Source of the DNA: Escherichia phage vB_EcoM_Shinka
Strand: one strand, 5' to 3'
DNA: 64,000 bases
Sequence record: MZ502379.1
Below the pieces are notes generated by a model. That model saw only the letters and a list, made by a program, of their open reading frames with translations, was not told where the DNA came from and did not search any database. Numbering within the stretch: the first letter of the stretch is position 1; each line of letters opens with the position of its first letter. The translations under genes were made by a program, and so were the position numbers. Positions 51,297-60,300 of this stretch are shown one piece after another.

Positions 51297-53354
51297 CTAC
51301 ATTTTGAACTTTTTAGACATTCCGTTGATGTTAACCAAAGAAGCTAAGATTTGAGAAACTTCATTTTCCTCTTCTTTTGATTCTTCTACAAGGAATTGAT
51401 TAAATCCAGCCATTGGACGAACTTCACCAGTTTCCATTAGATGGTCTCCATCATATACTGATTCTTCTAATTGTTCAGAAGGAGGAACGATTGTACCTTC
51501 GATTAGATACTTGTTATAAGCAGTTTCTTTCATAAAGTACGTACTTACTTTATTAATCTTCAGTAAAATTCCACGCGGTAGAATAACTTCAGCTTCTGAT
51601 GGAAATCCTGATAAATGACCTGGAACGATAACTTTGATTCGCTCAGCTCCTTTAATTACCATACCCACACTAGTTTCAGCATCTTCATTAGCATATGTAG
51701 AATGACTACCCATATGCATCAAATCTTCTGCATCAACGGAACCTTCTCCTTCACCAGAAAATACTGCTCCGGAATCATCTAGAGCCATATAGTTTTTACC
51801 ATGCTCACCGAAGATATTTGGTTTAAGCGATGTGGATACGAAGTTCTTGAAATAGAACATTTTGTTTTCAATGTTATGACGCAAAGTTTTAAATGTAACT
51901 TCTTGTCCACGGTAAAGTGTAGTTCCTGGAGGAAGAACTGAACCTTTAGCGAATGCAGAATCCAACGTCTCGATGTGCTTAATAGCTCGTTCCATATATT
52001 CTTCACGGGTAGAATCTGGTTTACCCAAAAGGAACGAGTTCATTTCAACATATGAATCTGCACAATAATCTTCAATTACATCAGATTCAGCCTGAGTCAG
52101 TCCTTTTGGAGCTACTTCGGTGCTTGCGTATTCATATGCCTGGGCAGCAGATTCATTAATCAATTTATAAATGCCATTCATGACAAATTGAATAATAGCT
52201 GTCTTTTCATCTGGTGTGGTTTTAGAACCTTTAACTAAATCATTAATAATTTTCTTAATAACATCAAAGCTATTAGAAATATTAATGTCAGCAAGATCGC
52301 TTAAAATTTTATCAGTTTTATAATCAAAGAATTCTTTATTCTTTAAATATTCTTGAGAACCTTGATATGTTATATCGCTCTGCAACTTGATAGATGGATC
52401 ACGTAAACGTGCATGGGCCAATGCAATATGATTTCGGAAGCTTTCTAGTTCATAATCGTTAGATTTAAAACGAGAAGCACTTCTCATACCACCGATAGCT
52501 CCTTTGCTGAAGTTTGAACCAATCTGAATAACGCCAGAGTTCATTGGTCCTTCTGCTTTATATACCGGAACTTTAGATTCAAACTCTTGATATTTCTTAG
52601 CAGCGAAGCTATCACCCTGAAGTGAAGCATCAACAGTAGAATATTGAGCTTGTGCTGCTAATCGACGACTAATTTTAGTTTTCTGAATAACAGCTTGGTC
52701 CGTGCGCTTATCATTTTCTAAAGCAATAGAAGCAGCAACAGCGACAGCTTTAGGAACAGCATTACCTGTTTTAACATCTACATAAACATCACCGACCTTT
52801 GATTCAACTTTTGTGAATAACTCAGTTGAAATAGGAGGTACACCTGGAATGTCTTCTAAATTGGCATTTTTACGGTAAACCATAATATATGCGTACTTTT
52901 TATCATAGTCCCAGATTTCCTTTAAAAGAACATATCGACCTGCTCCTTTAGTACGTACTAAACGGTCAGCAATAACTTGCATTTGACGAGCTGCGCCATT
53001 TGTTTTACTCTTTAGTACGCGGAATAGGCATGCGTCGATTTTATACTGCTTCATTGTTTGAAGAGCAGTATCAAAAACAGCATTAATGACGCCAATTGGA
53101 TTTCCACCCAAGTTTCTAAGCTTAACCAGCGATAATTTCTCGTTGACACCTATCATTACGATATGCATCATTTTATCGCCTGGCTTAACGTTTTTATTTG
53201 TATCACCACCAGAGGTGTATGTACAAAATCTAAATCCAGGAAGCACGCTTTCTTCGCCGGCTTGGATAGCAAAAATTTGTGGTATTTTATGCTTAGGATT
53301 TAAGTTAACAACCGGCGCCGAAGCGCCGTCAAATAATTCTGTAATAAGTTCCAT
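51297..53354 (-). CDS. Alt-like ADP-ribosyltransferase, paralog 2
   Basis: 685 aa; N-terminal ~200 aa near-identical to the adjacent alt; ART-like motifs YRGQ, FVSTSL, SEAEVILPRG. Confidence 0.75.
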   Translation of the reverse strand: MELITELFDGASAPVVNLNPKHKIPQIFAIQAGEESVLPGFRFCTYTSGGDTNKNVKPGDKMMHIVMIGVNEKLSLVKLRNLGGNPIGVINAVFDTALQTMKQYKIDACLFRVLKSKTNGAARQMQVIADRLVRTKGAGRYVLLKEIWDYDKKYAYIMVYRKNANLEDIPGVPPISTELFTKVESKVGDVYVDVKTGNAVPKAVAVAASIALENDKRTDQAVIQKTKISRRLAAQAQYSTVDASLQGDSFAAKKYQEFESKVPVYKAEGPMNSGVIQIGSNFSKGAIGGMRSASRFKSNDYELESFRNHIALAHARLRDPSIKLQSDITYQGSQEYLKNKEFFDYKTDKILSDLADINISNSFDVIKKIINDLVKGSKTTPDEKTAIIQFVMNGIYKLINESAAQAYEYASTEVAPKGLTQAESDVIEDYCADSYVEMNSFLLGKPDSTREEYMERAIKHIETLDSAFAKGSVLPPGTTLYRGQEVTFKTLRHNIENKMFYFKNFVSTSLKPNIFGEHGKNYMALDDSGAVFSGEGEGSVDAEDLMHMGSHSTYANEDAETSVGMVIKGAERIKVIVPGHLSGFPSEAEVILPRGILLKINKVSTYFMKETAYNKYLIEGTIVPPSEQLEESVYDGDHLMETGEVRPMAGFNQFLVEESKEEENEVSQILASLVNINGMSKKFKM

Positions 53355-53357
53355 GAT

Positions 53358-55448
53358 TTATCCTTGAACGAACTTGTAAGGCATGTTTGTAATATCTATG
53401 CAAGACGCAATAATTCCAAGAGATGATTCTGCTTTCTGTTTAACATTTGATGAAACAAATGATGCAAAGTCAACTCTGTCTTCTATTTCACCTGTCATTG
53501 CAACTACTTCGCCGGTTTCCATTAAACGGTCACCGTCATAAATTACCGATTCGGTGAGTTCTTCGGTGGTCATAACTTCAGCTTGAATGAGTTTTGTATT
53601 GTTAGATGTTGTTCCGTCATTATTAGAAGCATCAGTTATTTTATTAACTTTGACCATCAATCCGCGCGGTAGAATAACTTCAGCTTCTGTTGCTATTCCG
53701 AGACTTCCTGGATATACAACATTAACTTTATGTGCGCCGTCAATTGCCCATCCTATTTGAACTTTAACGTATTCAGGATTTTCTTTATACGCTCTTATTT
53801 CGTTTGGATTAATAGTTATTCCTTCTTCATTTTTATCAACTGTTAATTCATTGCGAGCTTCTGGTTCTAAAAGACCAATACCAGCATGTGTAATTCCAAA
53901 ACGTCCAAAAATGATAGGAGTTAAAGAAGTAGATACAAAATTTCTGAAATAGAACACTTTATTTTTAACTAGCGCTTCATATATAGGAGCAGTCATACTT
54001 TGAGCACGATAAACTGTAATGCCTTCCGGTATACGGTCACCATTTTCAAAAGCTGAATCTAAATTATTTATAGCAGATTCAATTTCTTTTTCACTCATTG
54101 CATCATATCGTTCTGGATTGTAACGACCTAAAAGAAGATTATTAATGTCTGTATATCCTGAGCCACAATATTCTCTAATGCCGCGCTTTTGTGATGGAGT
54201 ATATTTAGAACCATCACGGGCAATAGTAATATCAATCATTGGACCAGCACCAATTCCAGAAAAACTATAAATCATTCGTTTGAGGAATTTAGTTTTTGCT
54301 GCATTCCAGGCATTTTTAGTTATTTCTCCCCAGACTTCATCTGGCTGCCCTTTACGAGTTTTATTATGTTTATCAAGCCAATTATCTTTATATTCTTCAA
54401 AGAATTTATTAATAGCTGCTGCGTATTTCTCTAAACATTTTATTGAAGTAGTTGGTTCATTTTTTATCGCGTTAAAAATTACATCTTTAATTTTTTCTGA
54501 AACTTCATCAACCTCACTTTTTGAAAAGAATTTATAGTCATAGTGAAGTTCATTCGCAGTTCCTTCGGCAATAATTTTTGCTGCCTTAATTTTAGAAGCT
54601 AATGAATTAATTCCAAGCTTCATTTCTTCTGCTTCGGGAATTAAAGGAGCGGTAGCAGGTTTATTGAAATTAGCTGCGGTAGATTCATACTTATGGAATA
54701 ATTCACTTTCAAATCTAGAAGATTCTAATGATTGACTTTGTGCAATTGCTCTACGGGAAATTTTAACTTTAACGATTACAGCTTGGTCAGAACGTTTATC
54801 ATTTTCTTGCGCAATAGATGCAGCAATTGCCTCATTTTTAGTTACTTGAGCTCCAGTATCTTTATTGATATAAACATCACCGACCTTCGATTCAACTTTA
54901 GTAAAGAGCTCGGTACTAATTTCCGGAACTCCTGGAATGTCTTCTAGTGATACATTTTTGCGATGTATAAGAATATATGCATACTTTTTATCGTAATCCC
55001 AGAGTTCCTTAAGAAGGACGTATCTGCCACCTGAACGACTACGGATAAGTCTATCAGCAATAACTTGAATTTGTCGAGCTTGGCCAGCAGTTTTAGACTT
55101 AAGAATACGAAGCATACAAGCATCAATTTTATATTGACGCATAGTTTGCATTGCAACAGTAAAAACTGAATTGATATAATTAATTGGGCTTGGACCAAGA
55201 CCTTTTAATTTAGCAATTGAACCTTTAGCAGTTAATGTAAAAGGAACAATATGCATCATTTTATCGCCCATTTTTAAATCGCGATTAGTATCACCTCCAG
55301 ATGTATAGGTACATAAACGAAAGCCTGGTTGTTCAATTGCGTCATCAACATGAACTGAAAAAATTTGTGGTATTTTCTTCTTTGGATTTAAGTTTGTAAT
55401 CGGAAGAGTAGTATCTTCGTCAAATAATTCTGTAATAAGTTCCATCAT
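53358..55448 (-). CDS. alt: Alt ADP-ribosyltransferase
   Basis: 696 aa; N-terminus MMELITELFDEDTTLPITNL...; motifs YRAQ, FVSTSL, TEAEVILPRG; adjacent to gene 30 as in T4. Confidence 0.8.
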   Translation of the reverse strand: MMELITELFDEDTTLPITNLNPKKKIPQIFSVHVDDAIEQPGFRLCTYTSGGDTNRDLKMGDKMMHIVPFTLTAKGSIAKLKGLGPSPINYINSVFTVAMQTMRQYKIDACMLRILKSKTAGQARQIQVIADRLIRSRSGGRYVLLKELWDYDKKYAYILIHRKNVSLEDIPGVPEISTELFTKVESKVGDVYINKDTGAQVTKNEAIAASIAQENDKRSDQAVIVKVKISRRAIAQSQSLESSRFESELFHKYESTAANFNKPATAPLIPEAEEMKLGINSLASKIKAAKIIAEGTANELHYDYKFFSKSEVDEVSEKIKDVIFNAIKNEPTTSIKCLEKYAAAINKFFEEYKDNWLDKHNKTRKGQPDEVWGEITKNAWNAAKTKFLKRMIYSFSGIGAGPMIDITIARDGSKYTPSQKRGIREYCGSGYTDINNLLLGRYNPERYDAMSEKEIESAINNLDSAFENGDRIPEGITVYRAQSMTAPIYEALVKNKVFYFRNFVSTSLTPIIFGRFGITHAGIGLLEPEARNELTVDKNEEGITINPNEIRAYKENPEYVKVQIGWAIDGAHKVNVVYPGSLGIATEAEVILPRGLMVKVNKITDASNNDGTTSNNTKLIQAEVMTTEELTESVIYDGDRLMETGEVVAMTGEIEDRVDFASFVSSNVKQKAESSLGIIASCIDITNMPYKFVQG

Positions 55449-55497
55449 AGCCTCTCTAGTGTTTATTCTATTTATAAAATTAAAGGCCCGAAGGCCT

Positions 55498-55686
55498 TTA
55501 ATAATCTATTGGTAAGAGAGTACGATATATTTCAAACTTTGGACCTTTTTCATAGGCATCAAATGTTTCTGTAAATTTATTATAAGCATATGCATCTACA
55601 AATTCGAGAATGACTTGTGATACAGAAGTAGAAACATCTCCACCTTCTTTTTGAGCAATGACAATTGTTTCTAAGTAAGCTTTCAT
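55498..55686 (-). CDS. hypothetical small protein (62 aa)
   Basis: ATG overlaps the ligase stop (ATGA), suggesting translational coupling. Confidence 0.45.
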   Translation of the reverse strand: MKAYLETIVIAQKEGGDVSTSVSQVILEFVDAYAYNKFTETFDAYEKGPKFEIYRTLLPIDY

Positions 55687-57146
55687 AGACCAGTTACCTC
55701 ATGAAAATCACCAAATACATCCTCGAACGTATTAGCTTTAGTTTTATCTTCACGTAAACGAATCGCAATCGGAAGAAATAATTTAACGTAATCAGTGCGA
55801 CCATCAGATTTTAACCAACCGTTGCATTCGCACTCTAGAATTTTTCCAATATAATAATTTTGATTTTCCATAATGCGAGTACGATCAAGTTCATGCGATT
55901 TTACACCGGCTTTATCTTTTAAGCCTGAACCAGCATTTACTTTAATTTTTCCACACTCTGATTCAAGAACGAAACCACCTGCTTTAGTAGGGTCTTTACG
56001 GTGAGGATAAATTCCTACAATTTTTAAATCAACATCAATTACTTCTTTGAATTTATAGAGATTTTTTGAACGAGCATTTTCCCATAATCCATCGATATTT
56101 TTGAGAATAATACCTTCAAGACCTTGGTCAATATACTTTTTGTAAATTACCTTAGCTTCATCTATGTTATTTACTAATTGGTTTTCAATTAAAATTACTT
56201 TATCATAGCCTGATGTCATTTGTTCTAGTTTAGAAAAACGTACATCATATTTTAAACGAAATGCTGGAAGACCATATATTTCTACTAATGGAACATAGTC
56301 CCAGACCTGAAACTTCATGCATTGTGCTTCTTTTTCAGAAATGGTTCCCTTTAAAGATTTATTGGCGATGCCATTAGATGCAGTACGTGATTCAGCTACT
56401 TCGGCGAATTCTTTAGCTTTACTAATTTCAGGATAAGCATCAAAAAGAAAATCTAGGCCTTCTGGTTCCTTTTCAACTTGCTCATGGTATACCAATTCGC
56501 CATCAATTAACACACCTTCTGGATGAATCTGGCGGGCTTCAGCGGTCATTTTGATTAACTCTTCCTTAAGAAGATCTAATCCTAGATATTCATTACCAGC
56601 TCGTGATAAAAGACGGACATCATCTAATTCATCACCTCTAACTTCAGCAAAACACCGAGCTCCATCTGCTTTTAATTGTGCAAAGGCTGGAAATTTGATA
56701 TTCTTACTAATGCCTTTTTCATCATAAGAACTTGCGAGCATTTGAGGTTGTTCAGGAATTAAACCTGGCCAAACTTTGTTTGCAATAGATACTGAAGCAC
56801 CACATTCAAGGTCTCGCATCATCACTCGACGCAAAACTTCAACATCATCTTTTTTACCATCGGTGATGTATCCAGTTAATTCCTCAATCGCCGCATTTCC
56901 AGTCAATTTCCGAGTAGCTAACGTGAATTCAATGAAGTCAAGCATATCGGTAAGAGTCAACATTCCAAAACTCTGGGTAGCAATACCAGGTTTAGGCCAT
57001 TTCTTGATATAATACTGTAACCCACGAGAATAAGTCAGACGATATACTCGTTTAAGCAATTCATTATCTTTATTCTTTTCAAGAATTGCTTGCTTCTGCT
57101 TAGTTGAACCAATAGATGCTATTTCGTTCAGAATTTTAAGAATCAT
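55683..57146 (-). CDS. 30: ATP-dependent DNA ligase gp30
   Basis: 487 aa; N-terminus MILKILNEIASIGSTKQKQAILEKN; adenylation motif KADGARC. Confidence 0.95.
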   Translation of the reverse strand: MILKILNEIASIGSTKQKQAILEKNKDNELLKRVYRLTYSRGLQYYIKKWPKPGIATQSFGMLTLTDMLDFIEFTLATRKLTGNAAIEELTGYITDGKKDDVEVLRRVMMRDLECGASVSIANKVWPGLIPEQPQMLASSYDEKGISKNIKFPAFAQLKADGARCFAEVRGDELDDVRLLSRAGNEYLGLDLLKEELIKMTAEARQIHPEGVLIDGELVYHEQVEKEPEGLDFLFDAYPEISKAKEFAEVAESRTASNGIANKSLKGTISEKEAQCMKFQVWDYVPLVEIYGLPAFRLKYDVRFSKLEQMTSGYDKVILIENQLVNNIDEAKVIYKKYIDQGLEGIILKNIDGLWENARSKNLYKFKEVIDVDLKIVGIYPHRKDPTKAGGFVLESECGKIKVNAGSGLKDKAGVKSHELDRTRIMENQNYYIGKILECECNGWLKSDGRTDYVKLFLPIAIRLREDKTKANTFEDVFGDFHEVTGL

Positions 57147-57412
57147 TGTTCATCCTTTAGAGTTTGGTTTACAGCTCTATTATAAATCAATTCATCATTA
57201 AGCTCAGTCAAAGACCTGTGGTACGTTGTTCTAACTTTATTTCCTTGCATCCAGTGCTTGACGTAAATGAAACCTTGCTCTACACATTTTTTAAAAATTC
57301 GTTCGTCTTTTTGAGCTCGGAATTCTGGATTGCATCTAAAAAATTGATTTACGTGACCGTAATCACGTGTAGTATTACCTTCATTTTCATAAATAGTGTG
57401 AACGACAAACAT
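57143..57412 (-). CDS. hypothetical protein (89 aa)
   Basis: first ORF of the 30.x-position cluster. Confidence 0.55.
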   Translation of the reverse strand: MFVVHTIYENEGNTTRDYGHVNQFFRCNPEFRAQKDERIFKKCVEQGFIYVKHWMQGNKVRTTYHRSLTELNDELIYNRAVNQTLKDEQ

Positions 57413-58248
57413 TAGAATGCTCCTTGGAAAATATTATCACCACTAGTAGGTCTATTATACAAATACTCTATGCCACCAGGTTTAATATAGTTCCATGTCT
57501 GAAACGGATGCGTCTGATATGGATGATATGGATGATATGGATTAAATCCAGGAGTTCTCCAGGTAGTGTTCCAAGGAAAAGAATCGTTTTTAATCATCTT
57601 TTCAATTACATCTTTTATAGCTTTTTCACTATCAAAACTTTCTTTATTTTCCTTCGGTGAAAAAAGCTTATTTTCTACATCATTCCATGTATAAACTCGC
57701 TGAGCAGTTTTTGGAATATTGTCACGCTCTCCTCGAGCCATCCAATAAACAGGAACATTTAATATTTCACTCGCATGATCGCAATGGTGAGCGAGATCGT
57801 CAATATAACAAATCACGTTATATTTCTCTTTTGCCTTTTTAAACAACTCTTCTTTTGAAGAATCATGACCACACATCAGTACTTCTGAGAAGGCACCAGG
57901 AAAAAGAGCGTTTAAATTAAATTGACGATTCAGCAGAGCGTCAATAGAATCACCCAATGCTGTAACAGCTACAAAATTATAATCTTCTTTTAATTTGTTA
58001 ATTACACACAGAGCATCTTTATATGGAGACAAGTAACGAATAAAATCTGAACGATTGTATTTTTCAATTAGCTTGACGCCAAGTTCTTCGTCACAATTAA
58101 AGAGTTTACCTGGAGAAATAAATTTCTCATCCTGGATCATTTTTAAAATATGTTCTAACGGAAGATTATATTTCTGAGCAAAATAAGGAAGACCTGATTG
58201 CCAGCTTAAACATACTCCATCAATATCAGTTAAAATAGTAGGCTTCAT
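57412..58248 (-). CDS. HAD-superfamily hydrolase-like protein with C-terminal PYH repeats
   Basis: motif I DIDGV near N-terminus, later YIDDLAHH; C-terminal PYHPYHPYQTHP. Confidence 0.6.
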   Translation of the reverse strand: MKPTILTDIDGVCLSWQSGLPYFAQKYNLPLEHILKMIQDEKFISPGKLFNCDEELGVKLIEKYNRSDFIRYLSPYKDALCVINKLKEDYNFVAVTALGDSIDALLNRQFNLNALFPGAFSEVLMCGHDSSKEELFKKAKEKYNVICYIDDLAHHCDHASEILNVPVYWMARGERDNIPKTAQRVYTWNDVENKLFSPKENKESFDSEKAIKDVIEKMIKNDSFPWNTTWRTPGFNPYHPYHPYQTHPFQTWNYIKPGGIEYLYNRPTSGDNIFQGAF

Positions 58249-58709
58249 AGAGAGTCTCTTAATAGGTTTAACACATCAATAAATTCAGCTTCGGTTAGTA
58301 TTGTATCATCTTTTGTTAGACCACTAGCCATGCTGTGCTTCAAAACTTTTCCTTTCGAGGCTTGTAATGCATCACGAAAGCCCTTGTTTTGAATCGCTGC
58401 TTCAAAATATGCATTTGTGTATAATTCTTTCCACGCCGGGGAGTATCTTGAAAATGGAACTCCAAGCCAGAAGAGGGTCCCACGGTCCTGAGCTCTAGCA
58501 TAAGACCTTCCAGCTTGTTGAGCGGCAAGCCCGGATAACCCAAATATACGACGTTGTTGTTCAACGTTTTTCACCTTGCATCCTTGGAGGAATCCTTCAA
58601 GACCTCCAAATTGAATACCATCCATAACGAAAGGCCAATGGGCGAAATTACTTAATGCACATGATGGCCACCTAAAATTACTTCTAATCTCTAACTCAGA
58701 CATTTTCAA
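58245..58709 (-). CDS. NADAR (YbiA-like) domain protein
   Basis: 154 aa; SNFAHWPF...DG..F...E.F.Q..K pattern typical of YbiA/NADAR. Confidence 0.6.
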   Translation of the reverse strand: MKMSELEIRSNFRWPSCALSNFAHWPFVMDGIQFGGLEGFLQGCKVKNVEQQRRIFGLSGLAAQQAGRSYARAQDRGTLFWLGVPFSRYSPAWKELYTNAYFEAAIQNKGFRDALQASKGKVLKHSMASGLTKDDTILTEAEFIDVLNLLRDSL

Positions 58710-58902
58710 TGCTTATAATTTCAACATCAGCCCAATGACCATAGTTTGGTAGACGAAATTCAACTGGCCAGTCACTGCCTTTTTCTAATATAATAGACTC
58801 AATTTGTGGTTCTTCATGTTCATCGGTATATGGATTTTTATCTGTTACTTTATATGTGACCTTAATGTACTGAATTCCAAAAATCTTATTAATTATATTC
58901 AT
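58696..58902 (-). CDS. hypothetical protein (68 aa)
   Basis: ORF in overlapping early gene string. Confidence 0.5.
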   Translation of the reverse strand: MNIINKIFGIQYIKVTYKVTDKNPYTDEHEEPQIESIILEKGSDWPVEFRLPNYGHWADVEIISIENV

Positions 58903-59857: not shown

Positions 59858-60190
59858 TTATTTTACTACTTTCCAATGCTGCATGTCAAGTTTACCAACT
59901 TTTTTCATCTTCTCAATTAAGCGTTCGGCACGTTGGCGAGCTGTAACATAATACCATTCACCTAATTCATTTTGTTCAATTTTTCCAACGATTACTGTAT
60001 TCAATTCATAAATCCAACCAGTAAAGAAATTATGAACTTGAATTGTAAAGGTGAAATCTGTTCCCATACCTTCTGTTGTTTCTACTTCAATAATATCACC
60101 TTCAACTGCCATTAAGAACCACATAGTTTCATCATATTTACCATTGAAGCATTTAGTTTTAACTGCAGCGTTCAGATTAATCGTTTTCAT
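59858..60190 (-). CDS. hypothetical protein (110 aa)
   Basis: ORF preceded by an early promoter motif (60213..60247). Confidence 0.5.
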   Translation of the reverse strand: MKTINLNAAVKTKCFNGKYDETMWFLMAVEGDIIEVETTEGMGTDFTFTIQVHNFFTGWIYELNTVIVGKIEQNELGEWYYVTARQRAERLIEKMKKVGKLDMQHWKVVK

Positions 60191-60247: not shown

Positions 60248-60300
60248 AACTTTATGCAATCTTTGGAAAATAAAAAAGGACTCCCGAAGGAGTCCTCAAC

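Follow-up and report, generated by a model that had tools for sequence, protein, structure and literature searches.

The protein gp30.3 of bacteriophage T4 is AdfN, a NADAR ADP-ribosylglycohydrolase that strips ADP-ribose from DNA guanine and neutralizes DarTG1 (Johannesman et al., Nat Commun 2025, PMC11825919; Cihlova et al., Toxins 2024, PMC11125620). According to these studies, it hydrolyzes ADP-ribosyl-guanine and is both required and sufficient to overcome DarTG1, but is inactive on ADP-ribosyl-thymidine and gives no protection from DarTG2. Mutation of E36 and K43 abolishes its function, and in RB69 the loss of the C-terminal helix inactivates gp30.3 (PMC11825919; PMC11125620). The T4 enzyme removes ADP-ribose from DNA unaided in vitro; in vivo, however, it works only during T-even infection; DNA modification was excluded as the cause, and the authors invoke another T-even protein (PMC11825919; PMC11125620). 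An earlier comparative study remarked that the NADARs of T4-like phages are encoded together with ADP-ribosyltransferases (ARTs). For phage nucleotidases, the deoxynucleoside-5'-monophosphatase Dmp of T5 (anti-Kongming) offers a precedent for a role in both nucleotide-pool control and counter-defence (bioRxiv 10.1101/2024.12.20.629578). A search of a literature library for the product of the adjoining T4 gene, gp30.2, found no paper mentioning it.

We analyzed a window of 64,000 nt from Escherichia phage vB_EcoM_Shinka, a Tequatrovirus (T4-like phage), focusing on positions 55498 to 58709. On the minus strand, this region corresponds to the T4 cluster 30.3-30.2-30.1-30 (DNA ligase)-alt.1, with the same gene order as in the T4 annotation and 98% identity to Tequatrovirus genomes. 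The 3.2-kb stretch has matches in 657 phage records (at least 80% of its length is covered in 496 of them), so that its ORFs are genuine genes and not chance reading frames. The original prediction had placed ORFs of 278 and 154 aa on the same strand upstream of the ligase and two ARTs; all of these ORFs were found where it had located them, on the minus strand, and the ligase and the two Alt proteins have Pfam matches. The features of the locus are as follows.

58696 to 58902, minus strand: gene 30.4 (68 aa), the stop codon end of which runs 8 nt into the start of adfN
58245 to 58703, minus strand: gene 30.3, adfN (anti-DarT factor NADAR), 152 aa; predicted NADAR-fold DNA ADP-ribosylglycohydrolase; PF08010
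57412 to 58248, minus strand: gene 30.2 (whole ORF), 278 aa
57649 to 58248, minus strand: residues 1-200 of gene 30.2, predicted capped (C1) HAD-superfamily phosphatase domain with motifs I-IV
57412 to 57648, minus strand: residues 201-278 of gene 30.2 and the stop codon; one helix, then a disordered Pro/Trp/Tyr/His-rich tail (PYHPYHPYQTHPFQ ... GGIEYLYNRPTSG)
57143 to 57412, minus strand: gene 30.1, 89 aa, DUF3045 (Pfam PF11243, E 3e-64)
55683 to 57146, minus strand: gene 30, ATP-dependent DNA ligase, 487 aa (Pfam PF01068 DNA_ligase_A_M, E 5e-32)
55498 to 55686, minus strand: gene alt.1 (T4 annotation), 62 aa, last gene of the cluster (Pfam PF24647, E 2e-29)
55479 to 55502, minus strand: intrinsic terminator, 10-bp stem, UUCG loop, then UUUU; predicted end of the 30.x-alt.1 unit
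55469 to 55476, minus strand: T4 late-promoter box TATAAATA, preceding the first alt gene by ca. 20 nt
53358 to 55448, minus strand: alt paralogue a, Alt ADP-ribosyltransferase, 696 aa (Pfam PF03496 ADPrib_exo_Tox, E 1e-37), 69% identity to T4 Alt
51297 to 53354, minus strand: alt paralogue b, full-length second Alt, 685 aa (PF03496, E 4e-20), 41% identity to T4 Alt

The best explanation, which we regard as very likely, is that this is the T4 cluster with adfN, an independent HAD phosphatase (gp30.2) and a separate, functionally unrelated alt unit. The genes 30.4-30.3-30.2-30.1-30-alt.1 are probably co-transcribed and translationally coupled, because at each junction the stop codon of one gene overlaps the start of the next and there is no internal terminator. 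The ligase is 99% identical to T4 gp30, and gene 30.1 was found in only some of the loci in which a HAD gene accompanies a ligase.

The smaller of the two predicted proteins, in which the string “SNFAHWPFVMDGIQF” was confirmed, is slightly shorter than first described. The 154-aa ORF (58245 to 58709) begins at a mechanical TTG (58709) that is not the genuine start. This is the ATG at 58703-58701, overlapping the stop codon of 30.4 (ATGTCTGA) and giving a product of 152 aa, in agreement with the T4 annotation and with the published residue numbering of E36 and K43. The length was therefore wrong, but the assignment as a NADAR stands, by fold, by residues and by identity to T4 gp30.3 (150 of 152 residues, the only substitutions being Q22H and I125M). 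The first of these adjoins the conserved SNFA.WP segment. E36 and K43, invariant across 11 family members, are both present in the Shinka protein, as is H123, also invariant in the family and located at the end of a predicted strand (120-123). Residues 138-152, missing in the RB69 protein, which ends at residue 137, are kept, and the C-terminal helix is intact (138-151 in the AF2 model). This model (pLDDT 84.5, pTM 0.82) has the NADAR alpha+beta fold, with a core of five helices and small beta hairpins on its flanks. For this model, Foldseek ranks the three NADAR structures 2b3w (YbiA), 8bat and 8bau highest in PDB (E 1e-4 to 0.17; all others have E>2), and they alone exceed a probability of 0.9. 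Single-sequence searches of Pfam, NCBIfam, PADLOC and PDB retrieved only PF08010 Phage_30_3 (E 8e-70, 233 bits against a cut-off of 36), and the Shinka protein did not reach the threshold of PF08719 NADAR, which divergent relatives match over positions 7-120, also below the cut-off of 35 (15-22 bits, E 1.5e-4 to 0.03). The family profile had YbiA as its best PDB match, not significant (E 0.055), with E36/K43 aligned to the YbiA Glu/Lys. Taken together, structure prediction, fold search and profile searches support the small protein as a NADAR.

Given that the Shinka copy is intact and nearly identical to that of T4, it is predicted to be a DNA guanine-ADP-ribose glycohydrolase with anti-DarTG1 function, transferred from the T4 protein. 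The host toxin DarT1 would modify guanine in DNA with ADP-ribose, and AdfN, as a stand-alone NADAR enzyme, would cleave the N-glycosidic bond between the two; the release of ADP-ribose and restoration of the base would allow phage replication in DarTG1 hosts, and Shinka is expected to resist DarTG1. The original prediction of a counter-defence against DarT thus holds for the NADAR, having been shown for T4 AdfN against DarTG1, but no support was found for the HAD protein as its partner; of the two hydrolase activities suggested there for assay, on ADP-ribosyl-guanine or -thymine, the published T4 work bears out the guanine activity and contradicts the thymidine one. The anti-DarT role of this NADAR is already known, shown by experiment for the same gene in T4 (2023-2025), and since that function is published, finding it again adds nothing new.

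The 278-aa protein, gp30.2, proved to be a HAD-type hydrolase as originally described, with a capped HAD fold, an intact DxD and all four motifs. TDIDGV occupies residues 7-12, and the motifs are I, D8-x-D10; II, T96; III, K132; and IV, D150-D151. Among 92 homologues D8, D10 and K132 are invariant, and T96, D150 and D151 are each conserved in at least 90%. In the structural model, which contains the Rossmannoid HAD core, they take the canonical positions, strands 4-7, 91-96 and 145-150 each ending, and helix 133-142 beginning, at one of them, and a four-helix C1 cap is inserted after motif I (residues 16-86). From residue 244 onward pLDDT is <50; this tail is missing or unrelated in many homologues, with a recurrent GIEYL..(Q/R)PT motif. 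The extra regions of longer relatives (P0125, P0164, P0172, P0224) contained no Pfam domain and gave no functional clue. Single-sequence searches of gp30.2 in NCBIfam, PADLOC, PDB and Pfam (the latter even at E<=10) returned no match. The original prediction was to be refuted by profile searches giving no NADAR or HAD match and, taken literally, single-sequence Pfam gave just that for both proteins, although structure prediction, fold searches and profile searches support the two assignments. Sub-threshold matches to PF00702 (HAD) appeared in 23 of the 92 relatives (best E 1e-4), and to NT5C (PF06941) in 20 (best E 1.2e-4, 22.7 bits against a cut-off of 24.8). A precomputed PF06941 match exists for 7 of 32 distant relatives, the Shinka protein itself having none. 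The gp30.2 profile placed mouse cdN on top in PDB, not significant (E 0.11), with DGV..[W/F].SGL aligned. All this supports placing gp30.2 among the HAD-fold hydrolases, its DxD active site being intact, and the closest specific family is that of the NT5C 5'(3')-deoxyribonucleotidases. We picture gp30.2 as an independent HAD phosphatase that depends on Mg2+ and has a closed C1 cap; because of this resemblance, it would most likely act on a small phosphomonoester, and probably on a (deoxy)nucleoside monophosphate.

The neighbourhood of gp30.2 was surveyed in 79 viral loci. In 65 of them the gene immediately precedes the ligase; 31 of these also carry a NADAR and 34 do not. Around ca. 9 divergent NADAR loci, the nearest 8 kb contain no HAD; the NADAR-HAD pairing is, for these reasons, not obligate. 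These figures, together with a NADAR chemistry that needs no phosphatase step, speak against treating HAD and NADAR as a pair, as originally proposed. Distant gp30.2 homologues occur in aquatic T4-like phages, where they are not beside a ligase and no single gene accompanies them consistently; MazG adjoins one in four loci and lies ca. 4 kb away in another pair. Within T4-like phages, gene 30.2 seems to be an old companion of the ligase gene and not a dedicated partner of the NADAR. Even so, some functional link between the two may exist, because the NADAR-HAD-ligase order persists in 31 loci, with ligase identity to that of Shinka down to 39%, and adfN and 30.2 overlap by 4 nt. In the 31 of 79 loci with the NADAR upstream of the HAD, it overlaps the HAD gene start in 15, and in a divergent phage (L070-L072) a NADAR-like gene, the ligase and the HAD are found within 4.5 kb in spite of a different order. 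Such a link could mean that gp30.2 is the T-even protein that AdfN needs for full in vivo activity, by stabilizing it, localizing it or removing a phosphorylated by-product. The restriction of AdfN to T-even infection would fit, as would the fact that RB69, rescued by AdfN in trans, encodes gp30.2. However, AdfN alone de-ADP-ribosylates DNA in vitro (PMC11825919; PMC11125620), no phosphomonoester arises from glycohydrolysis, and the in vivo data fit ca. 250 other T-even genes equally well; moreover, the surveyed loci all come from related phages, so common descent, and not selection, may account for the shared order, and we hold this cooperation to be improbable. Also unlikely, taken as one proposal, is that gp30.2 is either a T-even factor needed by AdfN or a nucleotide-pool counter-defence enzyme like T5 Dmp; if true, 30.3 and 30.2 would together make up an anti-defence module of two parts, instead of being unrelated neighbours. 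The genes that overlap adfN offer low-cost candidates for whatever confines AdfN activity to T-even infection.

The proximity to the ligase, which holds in those 65 loci even where the ligases are only ca. 36-40% identical, could instead suggest a DNA-end phosphatase that readies nicks for ligation, with NADAR, HAD and ligase forming a DNA damage-reversal cassette; in a single locus (L100), the NADAR is directly followed by the ligase. HAD enzymes do include polynucleotide 3'-phosphatases, e.g., the phosphatase domain of T4 Pnkp. Yet these are capless, while the gp30.2 model is capped, and capped HADs enclose small molecules. The best specific matches are nucleotidases, T4 already has Pnkp (T4 annotation), and the aquatic homologues are not beside a ligase, all of which makes an end-processing role very improbable. 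Finally, the original prediction contemplated the processing of ADP-ribose produced by Alt. The cluster might recycle it or reverse the Alt modification. The genes are adjacent and on one strand, and the co-encoding of NADARs and ARTs mentioned above would be in line with this. However, a terminator and a late promoter stand between alt.1 and alt. The hairpin (-13.5 kcal/mol, z -3.4) is annotated as a terminator in phage JB75, to whose JB75_0076 alt paralogue b is 100% identical, and the promoter box TATAAATA has 25 matches in the window vs 9 expected by chance. Judged from these sequence motifs, the alt genes would form a separate late transcription unit outside the AdfN cluster. Alt is a late product packaged in the virion, and moves ADP-ribose onto protein arginines, releasing nicotinamide and not free ADP-ribose. 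No Alt homologue was found within 10 kb in 28 of the 79 gp30.2 loci, and NADARs are guanine-specific, the T4 AdfN substrate being guanine-ADP-ribose in DNA (PMC11825919; PMC11125620). We find this connection barely credible. Under the preferred explanation, the alt genes would encode virion-packaged protein ADP-ribosyltransferases functionally unrelated to the cluster, their adjacency reflecting the conserved T4 gene order, and gp30.2 would stand as a conserved, catalytically intact HAD phosphatase kept beside the ligase gene across T4-like phages.

Compared with known systems, gp30.2 shares with T5 Dmp that it is phage encoded and has a DxDG HAD motif I, past which no homology is detectable, and Dmp is a pre-early T5 gene (bioRxiv 10.1101/2024.12.20.629578). 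Homology between the two was considered and rejected (hhalign probability 1.8%, only motif I aligned); a Pfam search of Dmp gave no match. Much closer in structure are the NT5C enzymes (mouse/human cdN and mdN, 2jao, 2i7d and 1mh9; Staphylococcus epidermidis 3bwv), with which the model shares the capped HAD fold (E 7e-8 to 1e-7 and TMt 0.63-0.70 by Foldseek); in the profile alignment, an aromatic residue and SGL likewise come after motif I (DxDGV). However, gp30.2 is only 13-22% identical to them and has an extra disordered tail of 80 residues, and no member of its family reaches the NT5C gathering score. For gp30.3, the best structural match (E 1e-4, TM 0.63) and best profile match is Escherichia coli YbiA (2b3w), the founding NADAR/DUF1768 protein, with the SNFA.WP...DG...E..Q..K segment aligned, although the identity is 19%, YbiA has Glu in place of H123, and it is a housekeeping enzyme tied to riboflavin intermediates. 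The DarT1-associated NADAR antitoxins, or DarG1 (Geobacter lovleyi NADAR, 8bat), and the Phytophthora NADAR (8bau) have the same fold (Foldseek probability 0.98 and 0.91, respectively) and, according to the literature, the same Glu/Lys catalytic pair and guanine-ADP-ribose glycohydrolase chemistry. Against these two, Shinka gp30.3 lacks the N-terminal extension, carries His for Asp/Glu in the last strand and is only 14-17% identical; unlike DarG1, it is encoded by an orphan gene that lacks a partner toxin, and T4 gp30.3 cannot substitute for DarG1 in uninfected cells (literature). The nearest system is T4 AdfN itself, the same gene at the same genomic position and of the same length, with E36, K43 and H123 shared, from which the Shinka allele differs by its two substitutions.

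By sequence, the window belongs to a T4-like phage. The 3.2-kb stretch matched 657 phage records, with 98% nucleotide identity to Tequatrovirus genomes such as vB_EcoM_JB75. The minus-strand ORFs correspond one-to-one, and in the same order, to T4 genes 30.4, 30.3, 30.2, 30.1, 30 (DNA ligase), alt.1 and then alt, and Pfam supported the ligase, DUF3045 (30.1), alt.1 and two Alt-type ADP-ribosyltransferases (696 and 685 aa), confirming the gene neighbourhood originally described. According to the ORF coordinates, neighbouring genes overlap at all the junctions from 30.4 through alt.1:

30.4/30.3, minus strand, overlap of 8 nt with the sequence ATGTCTGA
30.3/30.2, minus strand, overlap of 4 nt
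30.2/30.1, minus strand, overlap of 1 nt
30.1/30, minus strand, overlap of 4 nt
30/alt.1, minus strand, overlap of 4 nt

Two signals were also found farther upstream:

59860-59889, minus strand, near-consensus sigma-70 promoter (TTGACA-18-TAAAAT, 11/12 matches) upstream of 30.7
60276-60297, minus strand, strong GC hairpin terminator, further upstream of this promoter

The promoter is likely the start of an early transcription unit running from 30.7 to alt.1, and the terminator likely the end of the preceding one.

The ORF of 154 aa opens at a TTG that was assigned mechanically; the true start codon is the ATG at 58703, giving 152 aa, as in the T4 annotation, and the published residue numbering. 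This protein is AdfN (gp30.3), with two substitutions (Q22H and I125M) relative to T4. The proposal that it is NADAR-like failed in Pfam for the single sequence, the NADAR model giving no match and PF08010 “Bacteriophage protein GP30.3” (E 8e-70) being the sole one, but held through the family profile, the fold and divergent relatives. The best PDB match of the 11-member family profile was E. coli YbiA (E 0.055), with SNFA.WP..DG aligned to the same YbiA segment and E36/K43 to YbiA Glu/Lys. The AlphaFold2 model (pLDDT 84.5, pTM 0.82) retrieved as top PDB matches exactly the three solved NADARs, i.e., YbiA (2b3w, E 1e-4) and those of Geobacter lovleyi (8bat) and Phytophthora (8bau), and nothing else with E < 2. 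Divergent gp30.3 relatives matched Pfam NADAR (PF08719) below threshold over the greater part of its length (E 1.5e-4 to 0.03).

The T4 NADAR hydrolyses guanosine-ADP-ribose and not thymidine-ADP-ribose, and phage NADARs carry His on the last strand versus Glu or Asp in other NADARs (Cihlova et al. 2024, PMC11125620); this is H123 in the window, invariant in the family. The gene was named adfN by Johannesman et al. (bioRxiv 2024; Nat Commun 2025, PMC11825919), who found it necessary and sufficient for the DarTG1 resistance of T2 and T4, with function abolished by E36A and by K43A and no effect against DarTG2. The sensitivity of RB69 comes from a frameshift that deletes the final 15 AdfN residues (PMC11825919); its copy ends at residue 137, and that of the window is full length. 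The suggestion of a NADAR counter-defence against DarT was therefore right but already established by this published work. Inside adfN there is also an out-of-frame ORF of 74 aa (58340-58564, minus strand), the counterpart of T4 gene 30.3', which the T4 annotation attributes to internal translation in a different frame. Several database records (locus L002, 7748-8128, JB75_0070; proteins P0004-P0006) give a 126-aa version of 30.3 that starts at an internal Met and lacks the SNFA.WP segment as well as the N-terminal strand; here the records are annotated inconsistently, and the protein is not truly shortened.

Downstream of alt.1 there are two full-length Alt paralogues; in T4 there is a single alt, accompanied by the remnants alt.-1 and alt.-2 (an old partial duplication according to its annotation):

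51297-53354, minus strand, Alt copy with 41% identity to T4 Alt
53358-55448, minus strand, Alt copy with 69% identity to T4 Alt
55469-55476, T4 late-promoter box TATAAATA, with alt beginning about 20 nt downstream

Ahead of the box, directly behind the alt.1 stop codon, there is a hairpin (-13.5 kcal/mol, z -3.4) whose 10-bp stem is closed by a UUCG loop and trailed by a U-run; it is annotated as a terminator in JB75. The Alt enzyme is packaged in the virion and acts on arginines in proteins, with nicotinamide as the released product; unlike Alt, AdfN acts on guanine in DNA. Given the terminator, the late promoter and the different chemistry, processing of Alt-derived ADP-ribose by the NADAR-HAD pair is unsupported. 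That NADARs are encoded with ARTs in T4-like phages had been remarked by Iyer et al. 2022.

The single sequence of gp30.2 (278 aa, 57412-58248, minus strand) had zero matches in Pfam, NCBIfam and PDB, and its PHROGs class is phrog_420, “unknown function.” Homologues are many in T4-like phages, and an exhaustive profile search found 1,276 cluster representatives. AlphaFold2 with a 92-sequence alignment modelled residues 1-190 with pLDDT > 90, followed by a helix and a disordered tail. In alignment and model, the four HAD motifs are all conserved at canonical positions (D8-x-D10, T96, K132, D150-D151), which, with the predicted fold, bears out the HAD-type assignment at the superfamily level. 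Within the HAD enzymes, a motif I of the form DxD characterises the phosphotransferases. Against PDB, the profile placed mouse cdN on top, with DGV..[W/F].SGL in common; 20 of 92 relatives had sub-threshold Pfam NT5C matches, and a precomputed one was present in 7/32 distant relatives. The closest specific affinity is thus to NT5C. We consider the phosphatase assignment secure, and a nucleotidase plausible but unproven. The tail (residues 201-278; 57415-57648, minus strand), with its many Pro, Trp, Tyr and His residues (PYHPYHPYQTHPFQ), is highly variable among homologues, with recurring short motifs (GIEYL..(Q/R)PT, LRAYY, LLNKV.ANDS) that may be docking motifs for a partner protein. One metagenomic protein of 302 aa (P0037) joins a gp30.2-like region to DUF3045 (gp30.1); either a true fusion or a frameshift introduced by sequencing could account for it.

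We fetched 79 viral loci with a gp30.2 relative and scored the adjoining genes. A DNA ligase was found on the same strand ≤2.5 kb downstream in 65, down to ligases only about 36-40% identical to that of the window, and an AdfN-type NADAR ≤2 kb upstream in only 31; the stable association is therefore HAD-ligase, although, since all the surveyed phages are related, it may be inherited gene order. The NADAR is an accessory gene of patchy distribution, inserted immediately upstream. The pairing of HAD and NADAR assumed in the original prediction is not supported, given 34 loci with HAD and ligase and no NADAR; among 26 loci found via NADAR, gp30.2 was adjacent in 15 and no HAD lay within 8 kb in about 9 divergent ones. 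The more remote HAD homologues, from aquatic T4-like phages, have other contexts; in four loci (L074, 5395-6415; L075, L079 and L081) a nucleotide pyrophosphohydrolase resembling MazG (Pfam MazG, E 9.5e-4) directly follows the homologue, which fits a role in nucleotide metabolism. A divergent phage (locus L070, 5998-10591; also L071 and L072) has the same three genes close together in a different order, i.e., a NADAR-like gene (AdfN profile match with E 6e-15, nothing in Pfam), the ligase and, downstream of it, the HAD homologue.

AdfN does not protect uninfected E. coli, T5 or Bas25, and T4 with unmodified DNA is still adfN-dependent, which rules out DNA modification as the cause of its T-even restriction; the authors suggested that AdfN may need a further T-even protein (Nat Commun 2025, PMC11825919). 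As gp30.2 overlaps adfN and is encoded in RB69, it is a candidate for this helper by position only, and an improbable one, since AdfN is active stand-alone in vitro and the co-occurrence data on gp30.2 and NADAR speak against it.

The region is otherwise of low interest, the exception being gp30.2 itself, an uncharacterised and widely conserved HAD phosphatase; no paper in the library searched mentions it. A functional precedent is Dmp of phage T5, a dNMP phosphatase active against the Kongming defence, which it blocks (bioRxiv 10.1101/2024.12.20.629578); it has motif I alone in common with gp30.2.
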